Assembly (NCBI GenBank): GCA_964344705.1
Contig: CAYFOG010000003.1
Location: 16,715-80,714, forward strand
Length of the DNA stretch: 64,000 nucleotides
Source of the DNA: Candidatus Woesearchaeota archaeon
Lineage (GTDB): Archaea; Nanobdellota; Nanobdellia; UBA10117; ARS21
Reading direction: 5' to 3'
This document shows, in pieces, positions 35,141-55,702 of the stretch. Position numbers and translations under genes: made by a program. Positions within the stretch are counted from its first letter, which is position 1; the number at the start of each line of letters is the position of its first letter. The notes below the pieces were generated by a model that saw only the letters and a list, made by a program, of their open reading frames with translations, was not told the origin of the DNA and did not search any database.

Positions 35141-35659
35141 TTACATCTCAAAAGATATTGAGTCTCTTCTTTGTTTTTCTATTACTTCATTTCCTTCTTT
35201 GGTTAAATAATATTTTCTTGGTCTTGTTCCGGTTGTTGCTACAAAACCTCTATATTCAAGTTCAATTAATTTGTTGCGAATAGTTCTTTCGGATTTATCT
35301 AGAGAATATGCTAATTTTAATTGAATTGGGGATACTGCAAAATGTACTGAGTCTGCTTTTCCTTGTTTGAGTAATATTAGGAATTGTAGCTCAGACATTC
35401 TGAACATTGCAGGTTTTATATTTGCGATTGGTTGTTGCGAGGTATATTTTTGAGTTGTGGAAAGTTTTGGAATTTCGTTTTTCCAATTTCCACTAATTTC
35501 CAAAGATTTTTCCAATAGTTTTTCTTGTTTTTCTTGGAGATTTTTGAGACTTTCTTGGAGATTTTTTATTGTTGTTTCACTTTGAGAAAGCTTTGATTTG
35601 AGGTGCTCTATGTCGATTTTATGGTCGTTGAGAATTTCGCGTATAGCTTTTGGAATCAT
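35141..35659 (-). CDS. coiled-coil + C-terminal winged-helix DNA-binding protein (the ORF track extends it to a TTG at 35782)
   Basis: C-terminal SELQFLILLKQ...ERTIRNKLIELEYRGFVATTGTRPRKYYLTKEG is a wHTH. The first ATG is at 35659, with a TTTTTATA TATA-like element about 30 bp upstream. The upstream extension is encoded by the TTTCCA repeat DNA. Confidence 0.5.
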   Translation of the reverse strand: MIPKAIREILNDHKIDIEHLKSKLSQSETTIKNLQESLKNLQEKQEKLLEKSLEISGNWKNEIPKLSTTQKYTSQQPIANIKPAMFRMSELQFLILLKQGKADSVHFAVSPIQLKLAYSLDKSERTIRNKLIELEYRGFVATTGTRPRKYYLTKEGNEVIEKQRRDSISFEM

Positions 35660-35689
35660 GCGTTTTAGACTTGATAATCGTATAAAAAC

Positions 35690-35910
35690 ATTTATCGTTT
35701 GGAAAAAGGTTTCCAAAGTTTTTCCACTAATTTCCAAAGTTTTTCCACAAAAAGACCCCTTTATTTCCACTGGAGTTTCCAATTGAATTGGTTAAAAACC
35801 ACCTTACTTAATGCTTATTGTTTATTTTTTGTCCATTTTGTTTGGAAAGAGTTTTGGAAAAGTTTTGGAAAGAGTTTCCAAAGTTTTTCCACTAATTTCC
35901 ACTGTTTTCC
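35690..35910. repeat. array of TTTCCA(C/A)/GTGGAAA-type direct and inverted repeats (ORB-like), including an exact 27-bp duplicate
   Basis: TTTCCAAAGTTTTTCCACTAATTTCCA occurs exactly at 35710-35736 and 35875-35901. TTTCCACTAATTTCCAAAG also occurs at 35487-35505 inside the ORF. Multiple TTTGGAAA/TTTCCAAA 8-mers lie in both orientations between the Cas4-like and wHTH genes. Confidence 0.8.
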
Positions 35911-36620
35911 AAAGAAGTTTGTATGTGTGTGCTGGATTCTTTTTTGCTAAAACAAGTATCGTAAAATTCGCAATAATTACAGAAATATGATTCTTCTCTT
36001 ACAGGAGGTGTTGATGTTTTTAGCGCATTAGCTAATACTGTTCCTCTTGCTTCCAAATAACCCAGCATATTTCGCTTCTCAACCTCAAAGGTTTTTATCT
36101 TACTTAAGGAAAAGTAAACTATCATTAATTTTTTGACATCTTTTTGTTGGGATTCAGGTAACATTGAGAAGTATGATTGTATCTGCATAGTATGTTCGGG
36201 TTTGGGTTGTTTTGGTATTCGTTCTGTTGTCTTGAATTCATACATTATGTTGTTGGAAAATACGTCAATAAATCCTATGGCATCGAATACAGAAAAAGGT
36301 GCTTGGAGAAATACTTCATTTTCTTCTTCAGGAATGTGTTCTTGGAAGAAATTATGAATTGCGTGTCCTCTTGAAAATATCCAAAGTTTTTCCAAAGATA
36401 TTGGGATTTCTTCAGTTAAATCATAATAGGACTTTCTGAGGCAGTGTCCAGTTAGTCGAGTTACTCCAAAACGTGGTTTCTTGTTTGGATCTTTCTTTTT
36501 TCTTGGCTTTTGTCCGGCAAGAAGTGCTCTAAGGACAACATTTGGGTAGTTTTCAAAATTACTTTCTCTTACTTCATCAATATGTCTTTCCACACCATCT
36601 GGACAAATAATGTTACTCAT
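35892..36620 (-). CDS. Cas4/RecB-family PD-(D/E)xK exonuclease with 4-Cys Fe-S cluster (stand-alone; Dna2-nuclease-like)
   Basis: All Cas4 signatures are present in order: GVTRLTGHCLRKSYY (N-terminal Cys), GHAIH, AIGFIDVF (motif II Asp), YEFKT (ExK), QIQSYF (QxxxY), and C-terminal CNYCEFYDTC (CxxCx5C). Its 8-nt overlap with the PolD DP2 stop implies an operon. Confidence 0.8.
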   Translation of the reverse strand: MSNIICPDGVERHIDEVRESNFENYPNVVLRALLAGQKPRKKKDPNKKPRFGVTRLTGHCLRKSYYDLTEEIPISLEKLWIFSRGHAIHNFFQEHIPEEENEVFLQAPFSVFDAIGFIDVFSNNIMYEFKTTERIPKQPKPEHTMQIQSYFSMLPESQQKDVKKLMIVYFSLSKIKTFEVEKRNMLGYLEARGTVLANALKTSTPPVREESYFCNYCEFYDTCFSKKESSTHIQTSLENSGN

Positions 36621-39600
36621 TTATGAAACCTCCAAGACTTATTTGTTTTGTAGCATCTTTCCCGAAGACTGATTCGACTCTGCTGCTAAACAATCTTATC
36701 GATTCTCTCAAGTATTCACTAGTACCTTCAATTTCAATTAAGTTTAAAGTTGGCTCCAAATATTTCTTTACTGAACCTTCACTTATTGTGTATATTACTT
36801 TCGGTTTGTTGCATTTTACACACTTACCTGCGAGAGGTGGTCGACGATATTTTTCATTACAAGCAATGCAACGGAATCTTTGCATTGTGAACTTGCGCAT
36901 GTTTCCCTTAAGATCTCTTATGAAGTGTCCGTTGATTATTAGCTCACCAACTTTGTGTAAATCTACAGCACGTATTTTGTCAGCTAAATCGAGCTGCCCT
37001 TCCATTTTTTCCACCATTGTTGGAAGATATTTATATGCAGAAACATTTACTCCTTTGTTCATGTCTGAAACGGTATGTGTGAATCCGTGATTTTGATATT
37101 GATCTTCTTGGTCAATTACATCACCTATCGATTTAACTCTTACCTCCCAAGGATATTTCATTCCCAATGTTGCTTCATAAAACTCTAAAGGATAATCCCA
37201 AGTAATATTTAAATCGTATACTTCATCGTCAACTTCTTTGGAATTTAATATCGTAGATATAACTAAGGGTGCGTCCATGCTTCGGGCACCTCTTCGGTCA
37301 GGTAAAAAGTCTCTTGAGAAATTTAGGAATGCATCCAAAGTTAACATTATTGCTGTTTCTTCTCCATCTAAATCTCTACGTTGTGCTGCATGCCACATTG
37401 GATGGGCGATTACTCCTGAAATATTTGAGAATCCAATTATCCGACCAATGATTCCTGCTGACGTGTGTGGGGCAAGTCCGATTATTAGTTGTCCGATTAG
37501 ATCTTCATTTGTTGCGATGTTGTAGAATGCAGGCAATTTGTATAAATTCACAAGTTCTTCATCAACAAAATCTGCAACTCGTTTGAACACTGAGGTTGCG
37601 GATTCAATTCCTAAGAATTCTTCGTTCGGTAGAATTACGTCTTGAGGGAATATTTCCACCAATTGGGTTGGTTTCGTTAGTGGTTGGTTATGAACATCTT
37701 TTGTATATCCTAATTTATTTGCTTTCTTGACAGATAGTCCAATTTCTTTTGGTGTAAAGTGTGTTGCTCCCAATTCAGTTCCGTCATATCTTACTGTTCC
37801 ATCTTTGTTTACTCGGAGCGAGTGTTTGGCGCGTAGTAAACCTTTGGTTGGGTGTTCAACGTATCGGAATTTGTTCATTGTCGCTCGAACGCCTTTAATT
37901 AGTTTAGGGAAAGGTCCGTCCCATTCTTTTTTTATTCTCTTTGAAAGTTCAGGTAGAGCATACTTTCTCCTTTCGTAAGGGACGCAGGTTGGTGTTTCAG
38001 GTGTTGAATATTTTTTCTTTGTTTTGTAATCCACATATTGTTGTTGAGTATTTTCAGAATTACAGTGTTCGCACTTCTGAAATATTGTTGATTTGTTGCA
38101 GTCCAAACATTTGATTATTGGGAAGTCTGCAGTTACATGTCCAACAGTAATTGCTTCATTGAATGATCTCAATCGTCCACCTTCATTTCCAACCGGGAAT
38201 AAGAAATTTGGTGAGCCTTTCAAATCTCGCATTTTTGCCTTTTCAGGTCTTCCCATTCTTGCGCCGATTCCTGTTCCAAATTTATTTCTGAATTTTATGT
38301 CTGTTCTGAAGTGTGTATTTAGAATATTTTGATTTAATTTTGTTAAGATTATTTTATTGTCTTTTATCGTATGCGGACAACCAATTAATTCTAGCAATCT
38401 TTTTTCGGGCGCATCTGCAGGCATTTCTGATTTTATGTAATTTTGAAGTTGGATTTTTTGTTTTTCTTGGAGAGCGTCTAAATAGAATGTGAACTCTGGA
38501 TGTAGGGGAATGTTAAAATCTTTTGAGAGTTTGATAGCTGTGTCAAAATTTATTTCGGGTGGGATAAACGTGTTGAAAAAATCCTTTGGTAAATTGTGAT
38601 ACGTTTTCGGGTTGTCTTTGATTGCTTTCTTCAATTCCTGCGCCCACCATTCTGGACAATATCCTGCAGGAACGAGAAAGTGTCCGTTTTCTGTGAATTC
38701 TCCCGGAGATATTAGTATGTCTCCCAAATATAATATTTCTGCGATTTCTTTTGTGAGTTCCTTTGCCTCTTCTTCGGTTTTTGGTTTGTGTACTGATCCG
38801 TCTTTAAGTTTTACAATTGGTCCTTCAATTGAATCGCAAGAAGTAAGTGAAGTTGATTTCCCGGGTCGCTCAACCCTTAGTTGTGTTCCGATAGCCAAAT
38901 AATTGTTTAAGACTTGCATTGTTATTGGAGATATTGCCCAAGATCCATGACCTGTTAATCTTGACCTTCCATATCTTTGTCTGAAGCCACCCTGTCTTAA
39001 TGGGTGTGTGAATACGGGCCGTCCTGCAACAATTTCTGCAATATATGAATAATTTGGTTTGAGTTTGTTGTTGTCCTTTTCCTCAGTTTTCTGTCCATCT
39101 GCTTGTTCATGAATTTGTTTTTTTAGCTCTTGGTAATCATTTAGCCACTGCCAGTCTAAATCAAAATCTTTGCCCCAATTATTTAGCTTTTTCATTACTT
39201 TTCCGCCTTTTAGTGGAAGCGCGTCAGTCAACATGAGCGCAACACCGCCTCGAATTCTGTCAGTTTCAATTCGTGAGAGTCCTTTGAAATTTGATACTGT
39301 TAATTCAGAAGTTGGATCTCCGTCGAGCTCCACGGGAAGATTTGAAATTATGTGTCTAATTTCTTCTTCAGTTGGTTTGTATTGTTTTCTCTCAACTCGT
39401 TCGTAATAATCCATGACTTCTGTGTACATTCTTTTGATTTCTTGAGTCGTTGGATCATATTTTTCTATTCCTTGCTTTTTTCGGACGTAATCTGCAATTA
39501 CTGTTGTGACTGCTGACGCTGTTGCTCCACCGCCTCGAATCGGTCCAGCATAGTAAAGTGCTAAATAATCCTTTCCGTCGTTTCGTTTTTTGAATTTTAC

Positions 39601-40008
39601 ATCGATTAAGCCTTCTAAAGGTGCTGAAACAACGCCTTGTGTAATGTATGCGAAGCCGGTTCTGATGCCAATATTTATTGCAGTTATTTTGTTCTCAAAT
39701 TTACAAAATTTTTCTGAGCTTATTTCATCCGCCAGAACGAGCGCTACGCGCCAATCTCCAAAACCATATTGTTTTTCAAGTTCGCTGATTCTTTCAACAA
39801 TTCCGCTTCCAATTAAATTTGGAGATATGGATCCCATGATTGCTTCAACCCTTTCTGCGACAGAAGCAGCAATTGGAATATCACATTTGGTTTGTGGGTC
39901 AATTCCTGCTTTTCTTGCTTGGTTTGCTAATTCACGTAGTTCAAGAGTTTTTGATTTGAGTGTTGAAAAATATTCTTCGATATGTTTGGGTGCAACAAGA
40001 TTTGACAT
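36613..40008 (-). CDS. polC: DNA polymerase II (PolD) large catalytic subunit DP2
   Basis: 1131 aa with the archaea-specific DP2 architecture and C-terminal zinc-ribbon cysteines (CIACNEKY...CVKCNKPK). Length indicates no intein. Confidence 0.85.
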   Translation of the reverse strand: MSNLVAPKHIEEYFSTLKSKTLELRELANQARKAGIDPQTKCDIPIAASVAERVEAIMGSISPNLIGSGIVERISELEKQYGFGDWRVALVLADEISSEKFCKFENKITAINIGIRTGFAYITQGVVSAPLEGLIDVKFKKRNDGKDYLALYYAGPIRGGGATASAVTTVIADYVRKKQGIEKYDPTTQEIKRMYTEVMDYYERVERKQYKPTEEEIRHIISNLPVELDGDPTSELTVSNFKGLSRIETDRIRGGVALMLTDALPLKGGKVMKKLNNWGKDFDLDWQWLNDYQELKKQIHEQADGQKTEEKDNNKLKPNYSYIAEIVAGRPVFTHPLRQGGFRQRYGRSRLTGHGSWAISPITMQVLNNYLAIGTQLRVERPGKSTSLTSCDSIEGPIVKLKDGSVHKPKTEEEAKELTKEIAEILYLGDILISPGEFTENGHFLVPAGYCPEWWAQELKKAIKDNPKTYHNLPKDFFNTFIPPEINFDTAIKLSKDFNIPLHPEFTFYLDALQEKQKIQLQNYIKSEMPADAPEKRLLELIGCPHTIKDNKIILTKLNQNILNTHFRTDIKFRNKFGTGIGARMGRPEKAKMRDLKGSPNFLFPVGNEGGRLRSFNEAITVGHVTADFPIIKCLDCNKSTIFQKCEHCNSENTQQQYVDYKTKKKYSTPETPTCVPYERRKYALPELSKRIKKEWDGPFPKLIKGVRATMNKFRYVEHPTKGLLRAKHSLRVNKDGTVRYDGTELGATHFTPKEIGLSVKKANKLGYTKDVHNQPLTKPTQLVEIFPQDVILPNEEFLGIESATSVFKRVADFVDEELVNLYKLPAFYNIATNEDLIGQLIIGLAPHTSAGIIGRIIGFSNISGVIAHPMWHAAQRRDLDGEETAIMLTLDAFLNFSRDFLPDRRGARSMDAPLVISTILNSKEVDDEVYDLNITWDYPLEFYEATLGMKYPWEVRVKSIGDVIDQEDQYQNHGFTHTVSDMNKGVNVSAYKYLPTMVEKMEGQLDLADKIRAVDLHKVGELIINGHFIRDLKGNMRKFTMQRFRCIACNEKYRRPPLAGKCVKCNKPKVIYTISEGSVKKYLEPTLNLIEIEGTSEYLRESIRLFSSRVESVFGKDATKQISLGGFINE

Positions 40009-40029
40009 GCTAATTTCATTATGATGATG

Positions 40030-40037
40030 TTTAAATA
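40030..40037. promoter_or_regulatory. shared, near-palindromic TATA element (TTTAAATA) for divergent PolD-DP2 and padR-like promoters
   Basis: Lies about 25 bp from the DP2 ATG (40008, minus) and about 25 bp from the PadR-like ATG cluster (40057/40060, plus). Confidence 0.35.
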
Positions 40038-40056
40038 TGATTGTGTGAAAAAGTAT

Positions 40057-40386
40057 ATGATGGGAAATGGATCTCGAGGGCGACCAACATTTAGTCCAAT
40101 AAGAGACAATCTGGTTGAACTTTTATTTTTTGTAGGTAATAGTTACGGATATGATTTGTACAAGAAATATATACAAGTCTTTCACAAAACAACTATGAGA
40201 TCAATTTATTATCATTTGAATAAAGGTGTGGAGCTTGGTGTGTTTAAGATTGACAAAGTTGAAAATATTCCGGGAAATTATTCTTGGGGCGAAGGTGTTA
40301 GACGCGTGGTGTTTGCACTTGATGAAAAAGCTCAACCTAAAAAGGATGTGCGTGTTTTGAAGCGTCTTAAAGAAATTTCTAAGTGA
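40057..40386 (+). CDS. PadR-like winged-helix transcriptional regulator (start placed at second Met cluster; track start is 40021)
   Basis: LVELLFFVGNSYGYDLYKKYIQVF...MRSIYYHLNKGVELGVF...RRVVFAL matches the PadR pattern. The earlier ATGs would overlap the divergent DP2 promoter TATA. Confidence 0.45.
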   Translation: MMGNGSRGRPTFSPIRDNLVELLFFVGNSYGYDLYKKYIQVFHKTTMRSIYYHLNKGVELGVFKIDKVENIPGNYSWGEGVRRVVFALDEKAQPKKDVRVLKRLKEISK

Positions 40387-40672
40387 AAATGATAAGACTC
40401 TGAGCCCTGTATTTCTCATGGAACTTAGTTATTGTTAATTGATTTTCATTTTATATTTTCTTTCTTTTCTATATTGAAAATAATAATATATAATATATTA
40501 ATCGTTTTGATTTTATAATTCAAATACAAGTTCTATAGGAAATAAAAGGGTAGGAGGTCTGTATTTTATAAGCAAATTTAAAAGCATAGCGGCACAGTTA
40601 TACGTTTTTGTAGAATTTTTTAGATTCTCAAACGGATAAAGTATTTTAAGCTCAGTTTCTTATGGAACTTTT
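40387..40672. promoter_or_regulatory. candidate chromosomal replication origin (oriC): AT-rich DUE-like region with flanking direct repeats, immediately upstream of cdc6/orc1
   Basis: A 286-bp non-coding, extremely AT-rich stretch (..aataataatatataatatattaat..) is bounded by TTTCTCATGGAACTTAG (about 40414) and TTTCTTATGGAACTTTT (about 40655). A GGAAATAAAAGGG element is present. Its position next to orc1 and PolD genes is the classical archaeal oriC context. Confidence 0.45.
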
Positions 40673-41950
40673 ATGAGTGATCCACAAACCAAATTGAACG
40701 ATTCAGGAATTGAAGAAAAACAAGTCACGGAAGAAGTTGAACGCACGCGAGACGAATTAGATGATTTATTCGATGATTTTGTTTCAAAAAAATCCATTTT
40801 CATCAATAAAGATGTTTTATCTATCCGCCACGTTCCCAAAACAATACCTCACCGAAAAGAACACATCAAAAAACTAGGAATGATTTTGGCACCAGCGCTT
40901 AGAAACGACAGACCTTCAAATATTTTTGTCTATGGAAAAACAGGAACTGGAAAAACTTTGTGTGTATTACACACACTGAATAGAATTGTTGACCGAATTA
41001 AGGGAACTGATTCTTCTTTATCTTTTGCATACTTAAACTGTAAATTGAAGAAAGTTGCAGATACGGAATACCGAGTCATCGCTTCCCTTGCTAAAGAATT
41101 GGGTGCCAATGTTCCAGTTACAGGTTTACCAACTGATGAAGTATACAATATTTTCTTAAAAAAACTCGATGAACAAGAACAAGTTGTTATCTTAGTATTG
41201 GACGAAATCGATAGATTAGTTAAAAAAACAGGTGACGAAATATTATATAGCTTAACTCGAATCAATTCCGAACTCAAAAAATCAAAACTTTGTTTAATAG
41301 GAATTTCAAACGATGTTCGTTTCATTGAAAATATCGATCCAAGAGTTAAGAGCTCGCTAGGTGAAGAAGAACTAATCTTCCCACCATATAATGCTCTCGA
41401 GTTAAAAGATATTTTGAGTGAGCGAGCAACAAACGCATTCGCAGAAAATTCAATTCATCCAGCAGTACTACCGAAATGTGCAGCATATGCTGCCAAAGAG
41501 CATGGTGATGCCCGACGAGCTCTTGACTTATTACGAGTTGCGGGAGAAGTTGCTGAACGAGCTGCAGCAGAAGAAGTTAAGATGGATCATATTCGCGAGG
41601 CAGAAGACAAAATCGAAAAAAATAGAATACTTGAACTAGTCAAAACGCTACCAAACCAATCAAAATTATTAATTTACTCAATATTTATTTTAAGTAAAAA
41701 TAAAACTGACAAACTCGTTACGGGAGAAATATATCAAACCTATGCCGAGTTATGTAAAATTAACGACAACTCAATTTTAACACAACGAAGAATTTCAGAT
41801 CTAATTTCAGAGTTAGATATGCTTGGTTTGATTAATGCTCGAGTAATAAGTAAAGGACGACACGGACGCACTCGCGAGATTTATTCCACAATTCCAGCAG
41901 ATTTAACTGAAATTATAACTGAAGATTTGAAAGGTGAATTAAGATTATGA
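40673..41950 (+). CDS. cdc6: Orc1/Cdc6 replication initiator (AAA+ plus C-terminal winged helix)
   Basis: Walker A VYGKTGTGKT, Walker B VLDEID, C-terminal wH; 425 aa. TATA-like gtattttaa about 30 bp upstream. Confidence 0.9.
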   Translation: MSDPQTKLNDSGIEEKQVTEEVERTRDELDDLFDDFVSKKSIFINKDVLSIRHVPKTIPHRKEHIKKLGMILAPALRNDRPSNIFVYGKTGTGKTLCVLHTLNRIVDRIKGTDSSLSFAYLNCKLKKVADTEYRVIASLAKELGANVPVTGLPTDEVYNIFLKKLDEQEQVVILVLDEIDRLVKKTGDEILYSLTRINSELKKSKLCLIGISNDVRFIENIDPRVKSSLGEEELIFPPYNALELKDILSERATNAFAENSIHPAVLPKCAAYAAKEHGDARRALDLLRVAGEVAERAAAEEVKMDHIREAEDKIEKNRILELVKTLPNQSKLLIYSIFILSKNKTDKLVTGEIYQTYAELCKINDNSILTQRRISDLISELDMLGLINARVISKGRHGRTREIYSTIPADLTEIITEDLKGELRL

Positions 41951-43317
41951 TTAACCAAGAAATCATCAAACAATTATTGGACAAAGGGATTCTACCCACA
42001 TCGGAAAATATTGAAAAGGCCACACAGGAAGTAGTAATTGTTAAACCAAAAATTGATGATTTGCGTGCTCGTTTGAAGATTGTCAAGGAATTCGACTATA
42101 AACAAAAGAAGATTACTCCGGCTGATTTTACTGAACACTATCGCGAGAGGTATAAAACTATGAAGAATATACTATTCAATCGACCTGAAGCAGCAACAGC
42201 AGTTTCAATTGACCGCGCTAAGCAAGGTTTCGGAAACGATGATCAAATTATAATTGCAATGGTTTCAGATATCAATAGAATGACTACTGGAACAATCAAA
42301 ATAACTGTAGAGGATTTAAGTGGTCAAATGGACATAATCATATCATCAAAAAACACTGATTTGATTGAGGAAGCCAAGTTTTTGACACTCGATGAAGTCC
42401 TAATTTTCAAAGGGCGAGTTATGAGAGATGTTATGTTTCTACAAGAGATAATCTTACCTGATATTCCACAACAACCAGTACAATATAGTCCTGAAGAAGT
42501 TTACGCGGTGTTTTCAGGAGACATTCATGTTGGATCGAAGCTATTCCTGCCAAAACAATTTGGTTCGTTTATAGATTGGTTAAGTGGAAAAGTTGGAAGT
42601 GAGCGTCAGAAAGAGATCGCGAAGAAGACCAAATATTTCTATATTCCTGGAGACTTGGTCGACGGTGTTGGAATTTTTCCAAGACAGAACAAAGAATTGG
42701 AAATTGGAGATTTGAGAGGGCAATACGAAGAGCTTGCAAAATATCTTGCTCGCGTGCCGAGTGACAAACAGATAATAATCTGCCCGGGAAATCACGACGC
42801 AGGCGTGCGTCTGGAAGAACCACAGCCTCGAATGAAAGATTACGCTGAATCAATTCTTGAATTACCAAATGTTACTATGGTCACAAATCCATCTTATACA
42901 AATATTCATGCGATAGATAAATACAAAGGTCAAGATGTTCTGATGTATCATGGATATTCCTTCGATAGATTAATTGATCAAGTTGAAGGTTTGCGTTTGG
43001 CAGGAGGATATGAGAAGGCAGACGAAATTCACAAGTTCTTGTTGAAACGCCGACACTTGAGCCCGACTCACAATCTAAATTTAACAATTCCAATGAAGCA
43101 AGATCCGCACGCAATTACACAAATTCCAGACATTATGGTTTCAGGTCATATTCACAAAGCAAATATTGGGAATTATAAAAACACAGTTTCGATTTCCGGA
43201 AGCTGCTGGCAATCAGTTACAGACTTTCAATTGAAATTTGGTCATGTCCCCGATCCAGGAATGATTCCAATCATGAATCTGAAAACACGAAAGTCAAACA
43301 TGCTTAGCTTCAAGTAG
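41947..43317 (+). CDS. polB2: DNA polymerase II (PolD) small subunit DP1 (calcineurin-like phosphoesterase, 3'-5' exonuclease)
   Basis: Phosphoesterase motifs GDIHVGS, GDLVDG and PGNHDA; N-terminal OB-fold region. 4-nt overlap with cdc6. Confidence 0.85.
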   Translation: MINQEIIKQLLDKGILPTSENIEKATQEVVIVKPKIDDLRARLKIVKEFDYKQKKITPADFTEHYRERYKTMKNILFNRPEAATAVSIDRAKQGFGNDDQIIIAMVSDINRMTTGTIKITVEDLSGQMDIIISSKNTDLIEEAKFLTLDEVLIFKGRVMRDVMFLQEIILPDIPQQPVQYSPEEVYAVFSGDIHVGSKLFLPKQFGSFIDWLSGKVGSERQKEIAKKTKYFYIPGDLVDGVGIFPRQNKELEIGDLRGQYEELAKYLARVPSDKQIIICPGNHDAGVRLEEPQPRMKDYAESILELPNVTMVTNPSYTNIHAIDKYKGQDVLMYHGYSFDRLIDQVEGLRLAGGYEKADEIHKFLLKRRHLSPTHNLNLTIPMKQDPHAITQIPDIMVSGHIHKANIGNYKNTVSISGSCWQSVTDFQLKFGHVPDPGMIPIMNLKTRKSNMLSFK

Positions 43318-43332
43318 TTATTTATACTTTAA

Positions 43333-44166
43333 TTGCTTGGAAAGAACATGTTCCCGTTGTTCGGATTTGTTATACATGTAGCTTTATTTGCAGCCGTACA
43401 AATTCTAGGAATTTTTACTGGATTAAATGCTTTAAAAATATTAGATAGTTCTTCCACAGCTATTCAAGAAGTTCCACTATCCGCAACAATATTGTCTTTT
43501 CTGATTGCATTTAGTTTATTATTTTTGCTTTTGAGATTTTCAGGTAAGTTTAATTTGTTCAAATACTTCTTTTATTTTCTAATTATAATTGGAAGTAAGC
43601 TCGTATTTGAAGCTTTCTTTGCACCACTGATTGCAAACATTCTAACGTTATCTTTATTGGCGCTGTTTTTATTTTACAAATCTTTACTAGTCCATAACTT
43701 AACTTTAGGAATCACCATTGCTGGAGTGGCAGTCAGTTTAGGTTTGAGTTTCAGCTTTTCAACAGTGTTATTTTTGATAGGAATATTTTCATTCTATGAT
43801 GTTTTGGCAGTTTATAGAAGTTCACACATGATCAATTTGTTCAAAGGAATGGCCAAGAAAGGAGTTATTCTTGCAGTTATGGTTCCTCAACATTTAAGCA
43901 AAATCAGTGCTAAATCAAATGAGTTCAAGCCAGGACAAGGCGTCTTTGTTTTAGGCACAGGAGATTTAGCATTTCCATTATTTCTTGCAGTTAGCGCATT
44001 AAAGTTTTCAGTTGTTAGTGCTTGGTTTATTGCGAGCGGAGCAATTTTTGGATCTGCACTTGTTTATTATCTTTTGAATACTCAGAAATCAAATAGAGCA
44101 ATGCCAGCATTACCGCCAATTGCGCTTTGTAGCGTGCTAGGATTCTTACTGAGTTTGGTTGTTTAA
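43333..44166 (+). CDS. presenilin/signal-peptide-peptidase homolog (A22 intramembrane aspartyl protease, PSH-like)
   Basis: The YD (FSFYDVLAVY), GxGD (LGTGDLAFP) and PAL (AMPALPP) motifs are present in the correct order within a roughly 9-TM protein. Confidence 0.7.
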   Translation: MLGKNMFPLFGFVIHVALFAAVQILGIFTGLNALKILDSSSTAIQEVPLSATILSFLIAFSLLFLLLRFSGKFNLFKYFFYFLIIIGSKLVFEAFFAPLIANILTLSLLALFLFYKSLLVHNLTLGITIAGVAVSLGLSFSFSTVLFLIGIFSFYDVLAVYRSSHMINLFKGMAKKGVILAVMVPQHLSKISAKSNEFKPGQGVFVLGTGDLAFPLFLAVSALKFSVVSAWFIASGAIFGSALVYYLLNTQKSNRAMPALPPIALCSVLGFLLSLVV

Positions 44167-44813
44167 TGTTCACCTTCAATATCTAAAAGTTCACGAATAA
44201 GTTTTGCTTTCTTTGGACCGAGTTTGTCAATTTTTGTCAAATCTTCTTCAGTGGCATTTAGTAAACTAATTGGCGATTTGAATTCCTTCAACAGAGATTT
44301 TGCAAGTTTTGGCCCAACAAGAGGAAGACCTTCCACCAAAAATTGTTGCTGTTCTTCAATCGACCAAGTTCGTTTCGATCCTCGAAGTGAAATTTCTTTA
44401 TTATTTTCAAGCTGCTCTCGTTTTGCAAGTGAAATTAACAAGTTTACAGTCTCTTCAGTATCTTGTGAAAATAAGAAAGGAATTTGATAGTCCAAAGTTA
44501 GTGAAAGCATCGCTGCCCTGATGGCATTTGGATGAACATTCCGAATTTCAAAAATATTTTGAATATCTCCTTCAATAATGTAAAGCGGTTTTTGAAAATT
44601 TTCTCGCAGTTCTTTTGCTTGCGTGAATAATCGTCCATCAACTAACGAGTTAACAAAGTCTGGAACTTTCTTCAATTCTACAACACATTCGTTTGAGAGA
44701 ATAAAATCTCCAACTTCTAAAGCTTTAGTTTCTATTTGAATATCTTTTTCATAGAGATATCTAGGCAATTGACCTTTGTTCTCTCTGTGATCAACAATTA
44801 TCTTAAGATCCAT
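44163..44813 (-). CDS. hef: Hef/XPF-family ERCC4 nuclease domain + tandem HhH (C-terminal half of Hef as a separate ORF)
   Basis: ERCC4-like core (VDHREN...GDFIL...VELKK) and C-terminal HhH2 (LPLVGPKLAKSLL...IDKLGPKKAKLIRELL). The start overlaps the upstream helicase ORF by 11 nt in a different frame. Confidence 0.7.
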   Translation of the reverse strand: MDLKIIVDHRENKGQLPRYLYEKDIQIETKALEVGDFILSNECVVELKKVPDFVNSLVDGRLFTQAKELRENFQKPLYIIEGDIQNIFEIRNVHPNAIRAAMLSLTLDYQIPFLFSQDTEETVNLLISLAKREQLENNKEISLRGSKRTWSIEEQQQFLVEGLPLVGPKLAKSLLKEFKSPISLLNATEEDLTKIDKLGPKKAKLIRELLDIEGEH

Positions 44814-46254
44814 TTTCGAGGAGTTCTTTCATTCGACGTTCTTTATGGTATGAGACCCAGTAGTATTTTTCGTCAATTGTGTCCTTTGTTATTAACATAT
44901 ATACCTTGCCAATGTTCACTCTTCCAATTCTTCCTCTTCGTTGTATGGTTCTTAATGCCGAGGGAACTGGCTCAAAGAAAATTCCAATATCTGCGTTTTC
45001 AATGTGAAGACCTTCTTCACTTACTGATGTTGCAACCAAAACATTAAATTCGCCATCTTTGAATTTTTCTAAAGTTTCAATTTGTTTCTTTTGACTCATA
45101 CCTTCCTTTTGACCAACAAATGCTTTTGCGCTACTTCGCGTATGGAGATTAATTTGCTCCGTTAGAAATTCAACAGTTTTTCTGAGTTGTGAGAAAATTA
45201 TAATTTTTTCATTTTTATTTTGTGTCAGTTCCAAGACTTTTGAAATTTTAGGATGTTCAATACCTTCATCCACTAAATTTTGCGCAGTTATTTTTGCGCG
45301 CTTGAAATCCCACTCATTAATAATTCTTTGAGAAGCTTTGGTTGATTTGGCTTGTGACTCAATCTTTTCTAATGCTTTACTGAAAGTATGAAGATTTTGG
45401 GTTTCAAGAGTTTCAATTAAATGTAATAGTTTGATTAATACGGTTAGTTCAGAAACTAGAAAATAAGTGTCTGGTCCTTTCTGTCTTTGTGAAAAAAGTG
45501 CGCGCTGAGTTTTCAGCAATTCAACCTTTCTTAGATGCGAAATGTCCTGACTTTTTATTGCGCCCCTTCCGTACAGAAGGTTGACATGTTTTTTGAGTAT
45601 ATTTTGAAGATAAGCTTTGACTTTTTTGTAATCAGCAGGAAGTTCAACCATCATTCGTTCAATCTCCTTTTTCTTGAGATGTTTTTTGAGATGCGGATTT
45701 TCTTCAGTAAGCAATTCAAAATTGTCAATGAATAAATTTTGCTTTATTTCATCTAATCTTTGCTGATCTGAAGCAGGACTTGCGGAAAGTGCAAGTATTT
45801 GTGAAGTTTCACTAAACTGTTTTGCAAGCCAAACGTAAGCGTAGTCTCCAGTTGCGCGATGAGCTTCGTCAAAAATTGCAAGTGAGATGTCTTGTGGTTT
45901 GAAATATCGTTTGATGAGGTCTGACTCGATTGTTTGAGGTGTAGCACAAATTATTTCCGAAGTTTTCCAGAGTTCCTTTCTTTGTGAAGGTGGAATTGCA
46001 CCAGTTAAATGTATTATTTTTTCATCCGGTTGAAAATATTCTTTGAAAGATTTCTCGTGCTGTACTGTGAGAGGTTTTGTTGGAGCCATAATTAAGATTT
46101 TACCTTTGTCCATGTTGAGAGATGCCAAAGCGATGGCGACAATGGTTTTACCTGCACCTGTTGGCAAAACAACGAATGAATTTTTGTCCACAATTTTTCC
46201 CAAAATTTGCTCTTGATAAGTTCTGAGCTTAAGTTTATCCTTTAGAAATTGCAT
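44803..46254 (-). CDS. hef: Hef-family SF2 helicase domain (DEAH box) as a separate ORF
   Basis: Walker A VLPTGAGKT, DEAH box FDEAHRATG, helicase C motifs (QRRGRIGR); 483 aa. Confidence 0.75.
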   Translation of the reverse strand: MQFLKDKLKLRTYQEQILGKIVDKNSFVVLPTGAGKTIVAIALASLNMDKGKILIMAPTKPLTVQHEKSFKEYFQPDEKIIHLTGAIPPSQRKELWKTSEIICATPQTIESDLIKRYFKPQDISLAIFDEAHRATGDYAYVWLAKQFSETSQILALSASPASDQQRLDEIKQNLFIDNFELLTEENPHLKKHLKKKEIERMMVELPADYKKVKAYLQNILKKHVNLLYGRGAIKSQDISHLRKVELLKTQRALFSQRQKGPDTYFLVSELTVLIKLLHLIETLETQNLHTFSKALEKIESQAKSTKASQRIINEWDFKRAKITAQNLVDEGIEHPKISKVLELTQNKNEKIIIFSQLRKTVEFLTEQINLHTRSSAKAFVGQKEGMSQKKQIETLEKFKDGEFNVLVATSVSEEGLHIENADIGIFFEPVPSALRTIQRRGRIGRVNIGKVYMLITKDTIDEKYYWVSYHKERRMKELLENGS

Positions 46255-46278
46255 GAGAAATTTTTGTGATTGTAGTAT

Positions 46279-46986
46279 TTATTGATTTGTATTAATTAGT
46301 TTACTGACGAATTTTTTCATTTTTTCTTTATGTCCAGCACCAACAATTATCAAAAGTTTCGAATCGGGAAATTTTCTTGAAATAAGTTGAACTTGATTTT
46401 GCATGTAAGTATCTCGCTCGGAAACAAGTACTCGATAGAATCCAGGAAATTTGTGACTCAGCTCTGAAATTAATTTATGAACAAGCCGATCTTTTGGAAC
46501 TTTTGTTAAATCAAGATTTATTTTGTTTTTACTGAAACCACCAAATAGCAAATATAGAACTAACTTTGATTTTTCTTTCATTGGAATATTTTTTGACATC
46601 CGATAAAGTGTGATTGAAATGTCTCTATCAATTAGCGCAACTTTTGCATCAATCTTCTTTGCCTCAAGAATTCCAGTTTTCATGTCGATACCTGGTTCTT
46701 GACCAGTTTTCTTTCCAAGAATTTTTTGTGAAATTGAACCGATAATGTAAAATAGAAACCCGAAAAGTCCGAGCTTTAATGCAGTTCTCAAATTCATTTT
46801 TCGCCTCCGTCTCGACATTAGTGCAGCATATCTTTGAGCATCAAGCTCCACAGCAATAATATTTGGTTTAAATTCCTTTACTTCTTTTTTGATTTCTTCA
46901 ATACTCTGTTCAGAAATGTGAGACGTTCCAATAACTCTAATTCGTTGATTTGTTTTTTTCAAGTCGCGAGGAGCATTTGCTTTCAT
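46279..46986 (-). CDS. TraB/PrgY-family protein
   Basis: N-terminal IRVIGTSHISEQS...IIAVELD motif typical of TraB-family proteins; 235 aa with a C-terminal TM. Confidence 0.6.
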   Translation of the reverse strand: MKANAPRDLKKTNQRIRVIGTSHISEQSIEEIKKEVKEFKPNIIAVELDAQRYAALMSRRRRKMNLRTALKLGLFGFLFYIIGSISQKILGKKTGQEPGIDMKTGILEAKKIDAKVALIDRDISITLYRMSKNIPMKEKSKLVLYLLFGGFSKNKINLDLTKVPKDRLVHKLISELSHKFPGFYRVLVSERDTYMQNQVQLISRKFPDSKLLIIVGAGHKEKMKKFVSKLINTNQ

Positions 46987-47034
46987 ATACTACTTATTAG
47001 AAATGCTTTTATTTAAAAACACTATTGAATTGTT

Positions 47035-47295
47035 ATGTTAAGCACTAAAAACTTGGGCAGTGTTCAAGGATTATCAGTTTACACTGATGCTGGAGAATTT
47101 TTTGGAATTATTGAAGAAGCAATTCTACACGCGAATAAAGTTGATTCCTGGAAAGTTAGATCAACTTCAAAATCTTACTTATCCAAAGCAATGCCGGGCA
47201 CAAAAGGAGTGATATTACCTCACCACCACGTCAAAGCAATTGGTGATGTTGTTCTGATTTCAAGATCTGCAGCACCAGCAATATCTGAAGACTAA
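47035..47295 (+). CDS. PRC-barrel-like small protein
   Basis: 86 aa; the QGLSVYTDAGEFFGIIEEAIL pattern is similar to the PRC-barrel at 33621-33880. Confidence 0.4.
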   Translation: MLSTKNLGSVQGLSVYTDAGEFFGIIEEAILHANKVDSWKVRSTSKSYLSKAMPGTKGVILPHHHVKAIGDVVLISRSAAPAISED

Positions 47296-47342
47296 TTGTG
47301 TCACTCTGATATCTTTTTAAGCTTTGATGATATCGCTAGTTA

Positions 47343-49205
47343 ATGGGTTTTAAGAATACATCTGAACTTGAAGTTCCCAATAAACTTGTAGATAAAATTA
47401 TTGGACAATCCAAAGCAGTTTCAATTATCAAAAAAGCTGCAAAACAAGGAAGACACGTTCTTTTGATTGGTGAACCGGGCACTGGGAAATCAATGCTTGG
47501 TCAGGCTTTAGCCGAAATTGCACCGCGGCAAAATTTACAAGACATCTTAGTTATACCTAATCTCAAAGATGAAAACAATCCAAAGATTCGTTCTTTACCT
47601 TCTGGACGAGGACAAGAGATAATTTCACGAGCTAAACAAAGAGCAGATATTGGTAACCGAAGACAAACAGTTGTGTTCTTCTTTTTGGCAATCATTGCGG
47701 CATTCTTCCCTTGGTGGATTCGAAATAACTATGGAGATATTATGGCAGCAGCTTCACTTATTTCTGGAATGATGTTCTTGTTACTTTATGGAGTCATGAC
47801 TAGCATGGGTGCAAAGCGAAAACAAATTCTTGAGCCAAAACTTCTCATTGATACAGCAAAAAATAATGCTGCGCCGTTTATTGATGCAACGGGAGCACAT
47901 GCCGGAGCTTTACTTGGTGATGTTCGACACGATCCATTTCAATCCGGAGGATTAGGAACGCCTGCGCATATGCGAGTTGAGCCAGGAATGATTCACAGAG
48001 CAAATCAAGGAGTTTTATTTATTGATGAAGTGGCGACACTCAATCCAACAACTCAACAAGATCTTTTGACGGCCATGCAGGATCGAAAATATTCAATCAC
48101 TGGACAATCTGAACGGAGTGCGGGCGCAATGGTTCGAACTGACCCGGTTCCGTGCAAATTTATTTTAGTTGCGGCAGGAAATACAGATACAATTCAAAAA
48201 ATGCATCCTGCTTTAAGATCCAGAGTTCGAGGGTATGGATATGAAGTTGTAATGGACAAGTTTATTGATGACACGCCAAAGAACAGAGATTATTATTATA
48301 GGTTTATTGCACAAGAAGTTTTGAAGGATGGAAAAATTCCACATTTTGATAAGAAAGCATGTGATGAAATTATTAGAATTGCTCGGAGAATGGCGGGCCG
48401 TAAAAGCAAACTAACTCTTAAATTTAGAGAACTTGGAGGAATTGTTCGCGGAGCGGGCGATTTAGCATCAGAGGAAAACAGTAAATATGTCGAACTTAAA
48501 CATGTTCGTGCAGCCATGAAGATTTCAAAGACTTTGGAACAACAGCTTGCTGACAAACACATTGAACACATTTCAGATTACAGAATTATTCGTAGCGAAG
48601 GAACAGAAGTTGGAAGAGTAAATGGTCTGGCAGTTATCGGAGATTCGGGAATTGTTTTACCGATTGAAAGTGAGGTTGCAAAAGGCGGAAAGAAACGAGA
48701 AATTATTGCAACAGGAAAGCTTGGAAAGATTGCAAAAGAGGCAATCGACAATGTTAGCGCAATAATCATGAAACATTTTGGAGAAGACATCAAAGATAAG
48801 TATGACTTGTATGTTCAGTTTATTCAAACTTATGAAGGTATTGAAGGAGATTCTGCGAGCGTTTCAGTTGCAAGTTCAATTATATCTGCTTTGAGAAATG
48901 TACCATTGAAACAAAATGTTGCAATGACTGGAAGTCTATCTGTTCGTGGAGAAGTTCTACCTGTTGGTGGAGTGACTCCCAAGATTGAAGCTGCAATCGA
49001 GGCAGGTTTGAAGGAAGTAATAATTCCAAAACAAAATGAAAAAGATATTGTGCTAAGTCCTACTATGCGGAGAAAAATTAAGATTCATTTTGCAGATAAT
49101 TTAATTGACGTTCTAAAAATATCGCTTGACAATCGAAAAGGTAAAAAGGTAATTCAAGCATTGAAGACTAATGGAATTAAATCCCGAAAAACTAAAAAGA
49201 ATTGA
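47343..49205 (+). CDS. lonB: archaeal membrane-bound Lon protease (LonB)
   Basis: AAA+ Walker A GEPGTGKS, a two-TM insertion within the ATPase domain ([13 protein letters not shown]...), and a C-terminal protease domain with catalytic Ser in [11 protein letters not shown] plus a downstream Lys. Confidence 0.9.
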
Positions 49206-49326
49206 GGCAGTTTTATCTCGTTCAGATTTTAAGAGTGTTGAAGAATTTGTGAACCATGCAGTTGAAATGTTATTATTTGCTGAAGAGAACAGAGACAAGT
49301 TTGCTAAGATGGTCGGCAGTGAGTGA
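49171..49326 (+). CDS. possible small ORF (51 aa) overlapping the lonB 3' end, weak ribbon-helix-helix-like pattern
   Basis: ATG at 49171 in a different frame from lonB; [36 protein letters not shown]... Too short for the ORF track. Speculative. Confidence 0.15.
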
Positions 49327-49347
49327 CAAAATCGTTTTAAATTTTAC

Positions 49348-50808
49348 GTGGTTCTTTTTCCTATGAAAATAAAATTGCGTGAAGGAGATATTTATGAATG
49401 TAAGGAAAGCATTCTACTTTTTCTGACTGAAGAACAAATCAAAAATTTGGATAGCAAACTAGTTGATTTAGCAGATAGTTCAATTCACGCAGAAAATTTT
49501 AAAGGTAAAAAATATGAGGCATTGGTTGTTCCAGTTGTAGGTCGAAGTTTTGACAGAATTGTTATGGTCGGCCTCGGCAAACGCGAAGAATTAAACAATG
49601 AAATCTTTCGCAGAGCGGCAAATGTTGGTGTACAAGTGTTTTCAAAATTAAAAGTTAAAGAATTCTCAACTTTTGCAGAATATGATGTGGATATTGTTCG
49701 AGCACTCTCAGATGGATTCAGACTTTCAAATTATTCTTTTGATAAATATAAAACTGAAAAGGATGACAAATTTCTAAGAGTTCAAAAAATTGATATGTAC
49801 GTACATGAGATTAAAGATGACTTCAAAAAAGCAATTGATTTTTCTGAAGCAACCTGTGAGGCCACAAATTTTGTTAGAGATTTACAGACAGATGATGCAG
49901 ATGTTGTTAATCCAGAGTATCTAGCAGATTTGGCAAAAAGCATGTCAACAAAATATCGATTACATTTGGAATTATTGGATCGGGCTGCTTTGAAACGCAA
50001 AGGCTTAGGCTTGCTTCTTGGTGTCGGACAGGGAAGTAGATTTGAACCTCATTTAATAATTCTTGAATACAAAGGAAATCCAAGTTCCAAGGAAAAGATT
50101 GCAATTGTTGGTAAAGGCGTTACTTATGACACTGGCGGATTGGATATCAAACTTCGTTCAATGAAGGAAATGAATACAGATATGTCTGGTGCGGCAGTAG
50201 TTTTAGGAATTGTGAGAGCTGCGGCTGAATTAAAACTAAAGAAAAATATTTTAGCAGTTGCACCTGTTGTTGAGAACGCAGTAGGATCAAAAGCGTACAA
50301 ACCTGGAACAATTCTAGATTCTTATCTTGGAAAAACTGTCGAGATTGGAAACACAGATGCAGAAGGTCGACTAGCGCTCGCAGACGCAATGGCATATGTT
50401 GTTAAGAATTACAAACCAAAGAGAATTGTGGATTTTGCAACTCTGACTGGTTCAATTGTCGCTGCACTGGGTGAAGATTATGCGGGATTATTTTCAACTG
50501 ATAACGTTGCAGATAAAATTATTGAATCTGGAGATTATGTCGGCGAGAAAGTTTGGCGAATGCCTTTGCCTGAAGATTATGAAGAATTATTAAAATCAAA
50601 AATTGCTGATTTGAACAACATTTCAAGCTCGAATTATGGTGGCGCAATAACTGCTGCATTGTTTTTGAAGAATTTTGTTGGAGAAACTCCTTGGACACAT
50701 ATTGATATTGCTGGAACTGCGCGAGGTTCAAAACGAAAACACTATTGGCCAATATATGGGACGGGATTTGGAGTGCGTCTTGTTTTGGAATGGCTAAGAA
50801 AGAATTAA
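49348..50808 (+). CDS. pepA: leucyl aminopeptidase (M17 family)
   Basis: NTDAEGRLALADA metal-binding motif and GKGVTYDTGG; 486 aa. Confidence 0.9.
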   Translation: MVLFPMKIKLREGDIYECKESILLFLTEEQIKNLDSKLVDLADSSIHAENFKGKKYEALVVPVVGRSFDRIVMVGLGKREELNNEIFRRAANVGVQVFSKLKVKEFSTFAEYDVDIVRALSDGFRLSNYSFDKYKTEKDDKFLRVQKIDMYVHEIKDDFKKAIDFSEATCEATNFVRDLQTDDADVVNPEYLADLAKSMSTKYRLHLELLDRAALKRKGLGLLLGVGQGSRFEPHLIILEYKGNPSSKEKIAIVGKGVTYDTGGLDIKLRSMKEMNTDMSGAAVVLGIVRAAAELKLKKNILAVAPVVENAVGSKAYKPGTILDSYLGKTVEIGNTDAEGRLALADAMAYVVKNYKPKRIVDFATLTGSIVAALGEDYAGLFSTDNVADKIIESGDYVGEKVWRMPLPEDYEELLKSKIADLNNISSSNYGGAITAALFLKNFVGETPWTHIDIAGTARGSKRKHYWPIYGTGFGVRLVLEWLRKN

Positions 50809-50862
50809 TTTTTTACTACGTCGCGTCGTAATCCTTAAAAGCCTGTAAGCTCATGTTTCATT

Positions 50863-52134: not shown

Positions 52135-52793
52135 AAATTCTAGCATTTACAGATTTCCATGGAAATGAAAAGACAATATACAAGATATTGAAACGTGCTG
52201 AGAAAGAAAACCCTGATGTTTTAGTTTGTACAGGAGATTTTACAACATTTGGAAAGAATCTCAATAAAATAATGTCAAAATTTTTGATTGGCAAGCCTTT
52301 AGTATTTATTCCTGGAAATCATGAAGACAATGAGAAGTCTTTGTACGTTTTTGCTAAAAAACCTGAAGCTCTACTTGTTCATCAAACCGCGATTGTTGTT
52401 GGAGGTATTTTGTTTGTTGGAAGTGGAGGAGGAATTTATGGAAAAACTGAACCAACTCTAGATATCTCAAAGAAAATTTTGACTCTAAAGATTAAGAACT
52501 TCAAGAATAACCATCCGGACGGGAAAGTTGTGTTCTTGACACATCGTCCCGCTTATGGAACTAAGTGTGATTTTATGTCAGATATCAAAGAACATGTCGG
52601 CGCGACAAATATTACTGAATTCATTGAGAAGAATACAATTGATTTGCATATTTGCGGACACATTCATGAATGTTTCAATACTCGAGATAAGATTGGAAAG
52701 ACCATTACTATGAATCCAGGTCCAGATGGGACAATAATTAATGTTTCAAATAAAATTACTATTTCAAAAAATAATTCATTTAGTAGATTTTAA
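52131..52793 (+). CDS. calcineurin-like metallophosphoesterase
   Basis: MKILAFTDFHGN...VCTGDFT...GNHED motifs. The ATG overlaps the serS stop (ATGA). The track's longer start at 52095 lies inside serS. Confidence 0.65.
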   Translation: MKILAFTDFHGNEKTIYKILKRAEKENPDVLVCTGDFTTFGKNLNKIMSKFLIGKPLVFIPGNHEDNEKSLYVFAKKPEALLVHQTAIVVGGILFVGSGGGIYGKTEPTLDISKKILTLKIKNFKNNHPDGKVVFLTHRPAYGTKCDFMSDIKEHVGATNITEFIEKNTIDLHICGHIHECFNTRDKIGKTITMNPGPDGTIINVSNKITISKNNSFSRF

Positions 52794-52799
52794 AACTAG

Positions 52800-55670: not shown

Positions 55671-55702
55671 TTCATAATGTTTTTATATGGACATTTAAGA
55701 TA

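Follow-up and report, generated by a model that had tools for sequence, protein, structure and literature searches.

Between a Cas4-like nuclease gene and a gene for a coiled-coil winged helix-turn-helix (wHTH) protein on a Candidatus Woesearchaeota contig (CAYFOG010000003.1, of which a stretch of 64 kb, hereafter the window, was analyzed) lies a dense array of TTTCCA/TGGAAA hexamers in which a canonical origin recognition box (ORB) is embedded. This array is a conserved composite cis-element in the origin neighborhood of a marine DPANN (Nanobdellota/Woesearchaeota-type) chromosome, most likely a control or assembly site and not itself an origin. We consider it an even call that it serves a two-protein complex, with the initiator Orc1/Cdc6 on the ORB and the wHTH protein on the hexamers, which would autoregulate the wHTH gene and be coupled to Orc1 occupancy; who binds what, with what cooperativity and looping, and to what regulatory outcome are points that we infer. 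An earlier note, made from the letters of this DNA alone, had described the repeats and proposed that they are a second Orc1-binding origin element, iterons for the wHTH protein, or an autoregulatory operator. Everything it said of the sequence itself (duplication, partial copy, and palindromes) checks out, except that the exact repeat is 28 nt and not 27 nt long, and the gene context it gave is borne out, the distance to cdc6 being 4.8 kb. Of the readings it offered, the two that would assign the repeats to the wHTH protein (iterons or operator) are plausible and have the most support, given the strict co-occurrence of gene and array, the TubR-like fold, and a phasing that matches the helical repeat.

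The array extends from about 35458 to 35912 (~450 bp) and is larger than first described, with a third block lying within the wHTH coding sequence (Table 1). Among the 132 TTTCCA/TGGAAA hexamers in the window, 19 fall within 35440-35930 (0.77% of the window), a 25-fold local enrichment that does not fit the low-complexity background feared in the earlier note; a 250-bp segment holds 0.5 hexamers on average and 13 at the peak, with the runner-up site in the whole window reaching 4. The 17-mer TTTCCAAAGTTTTTCCA and the 16-mer TTTCCACTAATTTCCA occur three times each in the window, always in the array. Only three exact direct repeats of at least 20 nt exist in the window, one of which is the 28-nt duplication (35709-35736 and 35874-35901, copies in the proximal and distal blocks, respectively). 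It includes TTTCCAAAGTTTTTCCACTAATTTCCA at 35710-35736 and 35875-35901; a partial copy, TTTCCACTAATTTCCAAAG, is found at 35487-35505, and GGAAAAAGGTTTCC and TTTCCACTGGAGTTTCCA are located at 35701-35714 and 35764-35781. Hexamers in the array are spaced by 10-12 bp (mean 10.6), and runs of direct repeats are closed by a convergent pair, TGGAAA-N3-4-TTTCCA. The 16-mer TGGAAATTAGTGGAAA is common to all three blocks, and most of the lineages examined retain it with no or only minor changes. Two further ORB-like or phased sites in the window were dismissed as chance, namely 52153-52175 (TTTCCATGGAAATGAAAAG), which lies in the DFHGN motif of a metallophosphoesterase and has no G-string, and 16460, which is a lone inverted pair. 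Plasmid-type iterons were not matched, as the units measure 10-12 bp (versus 17-22 bp), the neighboring protein has no Rep domain, and there is no DNA unwinding element (DUE).

Within the proximal block, the ORB combines a dyad core with a G-string. The ORB pattern of the clade, TTCCAnnGGAAAyAAAGGGGTC, has an exact copy there (35754-35774(-), 0 mismatches); with up to three mismatches allowed, it finds 3 matches in 64 kb versus 0.03 expected, and the other two (40402-40422(-) and 40532-40552(+)) lie at cdc6. The array ORB agrees at 20 of 22 positions with the published ORB2 of Methanomassiliicoccus luminyensis (GTTCCAGTGGAAATAA-AGGGGT), and fits both the archaeal consensus CTTCCAGTGGAAACGAAAGGGGT (PMC4153887 Table 2) and the euryarchaeal consensus (PMC1868953). 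When a relaxed ORB-tail pattern was applied to 11 related loci, oriC and the array were matched, with just four matches elsewhere in ~180 kb. The GGAAA core of the ORB is in phase with the array, at a distance of 12 bp to the hexamer upstream and of 21-22 bp to the following one, so that the ORB fills exactly two slots. Arrays have only one or two full ORBs, one in each unit and all in the direction of the wHTH gene. Because of its sequence identity to ORBs, Orc1/Cdc6 is the default reader of this box and presumably docks on it. The resemblance to initiator boxes suspected in the earlier note is therefore real for a full ORB, but its likening of the repeats to mini-ORB cores holds only in part. 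A mini-ORB is a 13-bp dyadic unit with invariant TTCC...GAA (PMC1904270), whereas the hexamer runs of this genome contain no TTCC-N4-GAA dyad and consist of half-sites with variable spacers of 4-6 nt; thus, the repeated hexamers are not mini-ORBs as published.

Related loci were taken first from six genomes and then from further contigs, and array anatomy was compared in 12 genomes, which are independent assemblies with wHTH identities from 35% to 100%. All 12 contain one or two direct units, composed of the ORB, two to five helically spaced TGGAA(A), and zero to three inverted copies, and the proximal unit always abuts the TATA box of the wHTH gene. Spacings between neighbors of the same orientation in these genomes were 10 bp (31 cases), 11 bp (16), 12 bp (9), 21-22 bp (5), and 33 bp (2), with a mean of 10.6 bp for the main class. 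The distal block has an orthologue in L001, L002, L007, L011, and L012, and an ORB with two hexamers occupies its position in L003-5, L009, and L014. Spacer sequences vary between genomes but are often identical in both blocks of one genome (aaactt in the window, aaacat in L001, and atctat in L007), which explains the exact 28-mer. Exact matches between the blocks of one genome reach 27-39 nt in the window, L001, L007, and L011, 20 nt in L009, and 10-14 nt in L002 and L012, against a between-genome mean of 17-19 nt; this uneven signal is suggestive of concerted evolution of the two blocks.

A metagenome scan with the nuclease profile provided 30 loci, in which sites were counted in the 460 bp after the nuclease gene (343 bp in L028, where the contig ends). 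One or two ORBs in the orientation of the wHTH gene and 6-18 hexamers are present in all 21 metagenome and genome loci with a detected wHTH gene or fragment, whereas all eight more distant loci without the gene have 0 ORBs and 0-2 hexamers, although they keep cdc6, a 121-aa open reading frame (ORF), and the genes for PolD DP2 and the nuclease. L044, which is as distant as the wHTH-less lineages but has a wHTH-like gene, carries an elaborate array. In L017, the most divergent lineage, the repeats are mini-ORB-like 12-mers (TTCTATCGGAAA), and it is the only lineage with dyad-like repeats. Public contigs often end at or inside the array (L013, L022, L028, and L031; L013 starts 20 bp before the wHTH gene), which is consistent with assembly breaks at repeats.

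The intragenic block is under selection at the DNA level. Synonymous codons were resampled using the DP2 and wHTH codon usage of each genome (whole-gene counts were also made): 1.2-3.0 TGGAA/TTCCA are expected in the best 90-nt window and 4-7 are observed, with the fraction of resamples that reach the observed count ranging from 0 to 0.03 in 11 of 11 genomes. The block is also kept despite a different linker peptide (GKQNFQFPIPISN in L044 and GKGSDRFPTENSD in L006; also in L016). The array region shows the strongest 10-11 bp AA/TT periodicity of the window; however, we did not count it as independent evidence because part of the signal at 35480-35630 comes from the coding of coiled-coil heptads, whose 21-nt units alone give a 10.5-nt periodicity in 35520-35600. 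This periodicity and the frequent contig breaks are what might be said for a non-functional array, i.e., low-complexity AT-rich sequence, a by-product of coding, or an assembly artefact. Such a reading is hardly credible: it is refuted by the comparative data, as position and architecture are kept across the independent assemblies, and the local enrichment of hexamers, the synonymous-codon excess in 11 of 11 genomes, and the poor fate of the upstream coding extension also speak against it. That extension is a 213-aa ORF with a TTG start, which the earlier note had named as a possible source of the repeats. All wHTH homologues begin at MIPKAIREILNDHK and align from the Met of the ATG at 35659 (172 aa), implying that the gene comprises 35141-35659, that the longer ORF is an artefact, and that most of the array is non-coding; the extension is not conserved, and just three database entries have it, as a mis-called extension. 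Public gene calls run the wHTH ORF into the array (P0003, P0005, and P0010) or place spurious ORFs there (L007 6670-6891).

A T/A-rich box equivalent to the putative TATA box is present at the same position in all loci compared, and the box probably serves the wHTH promoter. Given its distance of 22-30 nt from the ATG, the mRNA would be leaderless or near-leaderless. The proximal block stops ~10 bp upstream of this box.

The wHTH family is narrow and lineage-specific (45 clusters at 90% identity; 23 representatives at 50% among 1.84 billion). No Pfam family was above threshold for the protein, with only coiled-coil noise and sub-threshold wHTH families, and a wider family search gave no link to any named family. 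A mobile-element origin of the module was rejected, as no wHTH relative was found in 2.9 million viral contigs. The AlphaFold2 model (predicted local distance difference test score, 77) consists of a helix (residues 4-55), a disordered linker (59-83), a winged helix (88-152), and a C-terminal helix. Foldseek against PDB returned a single match at E<=1e-3, TubR of pBM400 (4asn_A; E 7.8e-5, TM 0.72), with a remote alignment of 27% identity over 78 columns. The profile search against PDB also placed TubR 4asn_A at the top (E 0.004), and MarR-type regulators and the archaeal centromere protein AspA rank next. The N-terminal motif ILNDHKxDIExLK (residues 9-21) shows very strong conservation. Two residues of the extreme C-terminal stretch 163-170, Q163 and F170, are invariant, and this stretch does not fit a canonical PCNA-interacting protein (PIP) box. 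Both regions may be protein-protein interaction motifs.

Taken together, strict gene linkage, position at and in the gene, the TubR-like fold, the 10.6-bp pitch, and an oriC without such runs point to the wHTH protein as the binder of the hexamers. A pitch of 10.6 bp is suitable for an 85-aa wHTH domain on each site but awkward for Orc1, which makes its DNA contacts through two domains, the winged helix and AAA+ (PMC3089459). In TubR systems the site is always upstream of tubR, comprises direct repeats in blocks, and the promoter is repressed too (PMC6009700). In the two-protein model, the hexamers would be iteron-like sites for the adjacent 172-aa coiled-coil protein; a dimer would nucleate on the convergent pair, more copies would then fill the phased direct repeats on one DNA face, and the coiled coil could bridge the distal, promoter-proximal, and intragenic (~+145 to +200) blocks. 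Since the proximal block ends so close to the TATA box, the complex would set wHTH expression, i.e., autoregulation. As the ORB fills exactly two slots, Orc1 and wHTH occupancy would be coupled, which would tie the locus to the state of the initiator.

It is also conceivable, albeit doubtful, that the whole array is an accessory Orc1/Cdc6 cluster, in which a high-affinity ORB nucleates cooperative filling of weaker half-site hexamers. In the manner of the Thermococcales dp1 cluster or of oriC2D, such a cluster might act by titrating or sequestering the initiator, or by looping to oriC at a distance of 4.6 kb, with the wHTH gene being a mere neighbor under Orc1 control. Each unit indeed has a canonical ORB, the hexamer equals the half-site of the ORB core, and the repeats of L017 look like full mini-ORB dyads. 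Moreover, Cdc6 occupies a second ORB/mini-ORB cluster within dp1 in vivo (PMC1904270), an ORB-rich region downstream of cdc6E controls oriC2 negatively (PMC3936714), and Cdc6-1 of M. thermautotrophicus is described, in a work cited in PMC1904270, as cooperative on multiple mini-ORBs. However, the hexamers here have no TTCC-N4-GAA dyad, the 10.6-bp pitch over at least four consecutive sites is too tight for a two-domain initiator, the bona fide oriC of the same genomes shows no such runs, only one or two full ORBs are present compared with 11 in oriC2D of Haloarcula hispanica, and the cluster is missing in sister lineages that have the cdc6-DP2-nuclease layout but no wHTH gene.

Several observations weigh against the two-protein model. 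Binding of Orc1 and of the wHTH protein to the array is deduced from sequence. Because the right-hand half of the ORB core (GTGGAAA) equals the hexamer and the repeats in L017 are mini-ORB-like, Orc1 could read all sites; and as ORB and hexamers are never found apart, the comparative data do not assign them to separate proteins. The Thermococcales dp1 gene offers a precedent for an intragenic ORB cluster that needs no second protein (PMC1904270). TubR is a distant match, with MarR-type regulators close behind it in score. A site just upstream of the B recognition element (BRE)/TATA would fit repression and activation alike. In favor of the wHTH protein as the reader of the hexamers, all lineages with TGGAAA hexamers share the recognition helix SERTIRNKL without change, and L017 alone has both RTIHNK instead of RTIRNK and CGGAAA instead of TGGAAA; this co-variation is a hint from a single event.

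The real oriC of the clade is the segment next to cdc6. It consists of two inverted, degenerate ORBs separated by ~110 bp of 88-92% AT, and by nearest-neighbor calculations no duplex in the window is less stable than that of 40426-40530, on the 60-bp as on the 100-bp scale. This architecture, including a near-invariant TATTATCAATATAGAAAAGAAA core, is kept in every lineage examined, and no phased hexamer runs were found at the bona fide oriC of the same genomes. A mini-ORB-like TTCCATAAGAAA at 40656-40670 overlaps the cdc6 start codon and could mediate cdc6 autoregulation. Skews at third codon positions place a switch in strand composition between 40386 and 40673: every gene to the left, on either strand, has plus-strand AT3 skews of -0.18 to -0.46 and GC3 skews of +0.11 to +0.67, whereas from cdc6 rightward both are ~0, with only cdc6, XPF, and TraB having reversed GC3. 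The pattern is one-sided rather than mirror-symmetric, raw skews of related contigs look alike, and the polarity, with a G/T-rich top strand on the left side of oriC, runs counter to the leading-strand rule of bacteria.

A role of the array as a second origin, or as part of oriC itself, which the earlier note had considered, is very unlikely. It does contain a canonical ORB 4.8 kb from cdc6 within a replication-gene island, and a moderately AT-rich 59-bp spacer separates its two intergenic repeat blocks. However, no DUE was detected in the array: for duplex instability, its spacer falls only in the 13th-20th percentile of the window, in which 40426-40530 ranks first. Array ORBs occur singly or as direct repeats, with no inverted pair in the 11 loci or in the array-bearing loci of the 30-locus scan, and the ORBs of L003-5 are separated by ~33 bp that are not AT-rich. 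There is no composition switch at the array either, as wHTH, nuclease, and DP2 genes share the left-hand skews and the switch lies at 40.39-40.67 kb rather than 35.8 kb. The absence of a DUE, inverted ORBs, and a composition switch thus argues that the array is not a second origin, and the module is dispensable in sister clades.

Table 1. Coordinates of the array, its genes, and the nearby origin in the window
Feature	Position	Strand	Remarks
Third hexamer block	35458-35514	-	inside wHTH coding sequence, codons for LLEKSLEISGNWKNEIPK; gene strand: four TGGAA then two TTCCA; includes the invariant 16-mer
Putative TATA box TTTTTATA	35681-35688	-	~22-30 nt upstream of wHTH ATG, read from sequence
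Proximal composite block	35700-35781	-	gene strand: TGGAAA, ORB, four TGGAAA, one inverted TTTCCA
Canonical ORB ACTCCAGTGGAAATAAAGGGGT	35753-35774	-	dyad core and G-string
Spacer between intergenic blocks	35784-35842	.	59 bp, moderately AT-rich, not a DUE
Distal hexamer block	35843-35911	-	four TGGAAA then three TTTCCA (gene strand), 10-12 bp start-to-start; covers last codons and stop of nuclease gene
Coiled-coil wHTH gene	35141-35659	-	gene calls and homologue alignment
Cas4-like PD-(D/E)XK nuclease gene (4-Cys)	35892-36620	-	last of the PolD DP2-nuclease pair
PolD DP2 gene	36613-40008	-	gene calls and Pfam
121-aa ORF, no Pfam or PDB match	40021-40386	+	between DP2 and oriC
oriC core	40402-40552	.	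inverted ORB-like elements 40402-40422(-), 40532-40552(+)
orc1/cdc6 gene	40673-41950	+	sole initiator gene in the 64-kb window; presumed ORB reader

To the right of the DP2 gene follow the 121-aa ORF, an AT-rich intergenic region, cdc6, and the PolD DP1 gene, and a convergent TctA gene is the downstream neighbor of the wHTH gene. The 121-aa ORF is unannotated, adjacent to the origin, and found in every lineage, including those without the wHTH/array module; no Pfam or PDB sequence match was obtained for it. Since it is present in both wHTH-containing and wHTH-less groups, it is not a specific partner, and as it occurs in lineages without the array it was rejected as the hexamer binder. In the lineage of the window, the C-terminal tail of the nuclease (...SLENSGN before the stop) is the distal hexamer block in frame and is poorly conserved; the stop codon comes earlier in other lineages (region 35892-35920; compared with L002 and L001). 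The spacer between the intergenic blocks is poorly conserved between lineages and has a T5 run on the gene strand, which may be the nuclease terminator. An Rfam scan of 34.5-41 kb gave one chance match to a long non-coding RNA (E 0.78), offering no RNA-family explanation of the array, and a tRNA scan found none near it. The right flank of oriC (41947-58281) is a replication/repair island with DP1, an XPF/Hef-type nuclease and helicase, a TraB-family protein, LonB, a type IA topoisomerase-like protein, RadB, and Cdc48, and on its left flank (21-33 kb) glycosyltransferase and sugar-nucleotide genes are clustered. Between two convergent genes, 69 bp are exactly duplicated in tandem (15634-15702 and 15703-15771), which may reflect a recent event or faulty assembly, and a 35-nt exact direct repeat lies within the Cdc48 gene, in its two AAA domains (56755-56789 and 57577-57611).

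The array might be a chromosomal centromere-like site whose blocks near oriC are coated by the TubR-like protein for segregation or organization, with its N-terminal helix recruiting a partner encoded elsewhere, in the manner of tubC-TubR, parC-ParR, stbS-StbA, and parS-ParB; we regard this as quite unlikely. TubR is the best match in both structure and sequence and AspA is among the matches, the site is origin-proximal with a tubC-like layout (blocks of direct repeats upstream of the gene of the binder), and ILNDHKxDIExLK is strongly conserved. However, no TubZ, FtsZ, ParA, SegA, or other NTPase was found in the operon, the scanned portions of the window, or related loci, the similarity to TubR is remote, an embedded ORB is not predicted by such a site, and sister lineages manage without the module. 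An unlikely but far-reaching variant is that the ORB and the TubR-like iteron array form one phased scaffold beside oriC, a previously unrecognized origin-proximal centromere/initiator-control site. The wHTH filament would then pass the origin region, once it has been replicated, on to a partner in segregation or condensation or, alternatively, gate Orc1 availability following the logic of datA plus an accessory factor; if true, this would link replication initiation to chromosome organization in DPANN archaea.

There are precedents for ORBs, for ORB clusters outside origins, and for phased iteron operators. Their combination here, with an ORB in register within phased hexamers, three blocks of which one is intragenic, and a lineage-specific TubR-like gene near a DPANN oriC, appears undescribed. 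DPANN replication control and segregation appear largely unstudied; a preprint survey of 208 complete Nanobdellota genomes rotated the genomes to ORC1/Cdc6, and the terms "ORB" and "skew" are absent from it. The locus provides a testable handle, namely 450 bp of DNA, two small proteins (Orc1 and the 172-aa wHTH protein), and a natural presence/absence contrast between sister lineages, and the analysis also locates the real oriC of the clade and reveals an odd one-sided compositional asymmetry there. To our knowledge, DPANN chromosome segregation has been uncharacterized so far, and the two-protein model, if true, would be the first case of an archaeal initiator box integrated in the phased iteron array of a second protein. 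It could then be the archaeal equivalent of bacterial sites that titrate initiators or serve as origin-proximal centromeres. Reading by Orc1 alone, if true, would mean that Orc1 assembles on half-sites in helical phase, a mode of assembly not known so far.

Two sets of direct repeats with ~11 bp periodicity at the promoter of their binder, bound cooperatively on one face, characterize parC-ParR of R1 and stbS-StbA of R388. The array resembles them in having ~11-bp-phased repeats around or upstream of the promoter of the binder gene; however, they are plasmid systems with different folds (ribbon-helix-helix or helix-turn-helix) and no ORB, and the repeats of the array switch orientation within a block. 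With tubC-TubR of type III plasmid/phage partition (PMC6009700; PDB 4asn), it shares a small wHTH protein, a site directly upstream of its own gene, and short direct repeats in blocks (here two intergenic and one intragenic), and tubC doubles as an operator. It differs in being a chromosomal archaeal element with an embedded ORB, in its units of 10-11 bp with a TGGAAA core instead of 12-bp tubC repeats, and in a protein with an N-terminal coiled coil and linker whose homology to TubR is remote; no tubZ was found in the same operon, and no FtsZ/TubZ or ParA-like gene in the scanned window portions or related loci.

On the side of initiator elements, the array belongs to the same ORB sequence family as the canonical oriC 4.6 kb away, but it has no DUE, inverted ORB pair, cdc6 adjacency, or composition switch. 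Haloarcula hispanica oriC2D (Wu et al. 2014, PMC3936714) and, by analogy, E. coli datA are also clusters of initiator elements apart from an origin; oriC2D carries its 11 ORBs in 722 bp and is proposed to control initiation by initiator titration, whereas the array has few ORBs and mostly hexamers, and oriC2D has no associated DNA-binding gene. The Thermococcales dp1 cluster (Matsunaga et al. 2007, PMC1904270), which is bound in vivo by Cdc6/Orc1 in Pyrococcus, differs in that the array is found past DP2 and the nuclease, on the opposite flank of the origin, has only one or two full ORBs, consists of strictly phased hexamer half-sites instead of 13-bp dyadic mini-ORBs, and is tied to a dedicated wHTH gene, being absent where that gene is absent. 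Nevertheless, the two are alike in placing extra initiator boxes a few kb from oriC in a cdc6-PolD island (here one or two ORBs at 4.6 kb, conserved in all wHTH-bearing lineages), in clade-wide conservation, and in partial overlap with coding sequence.

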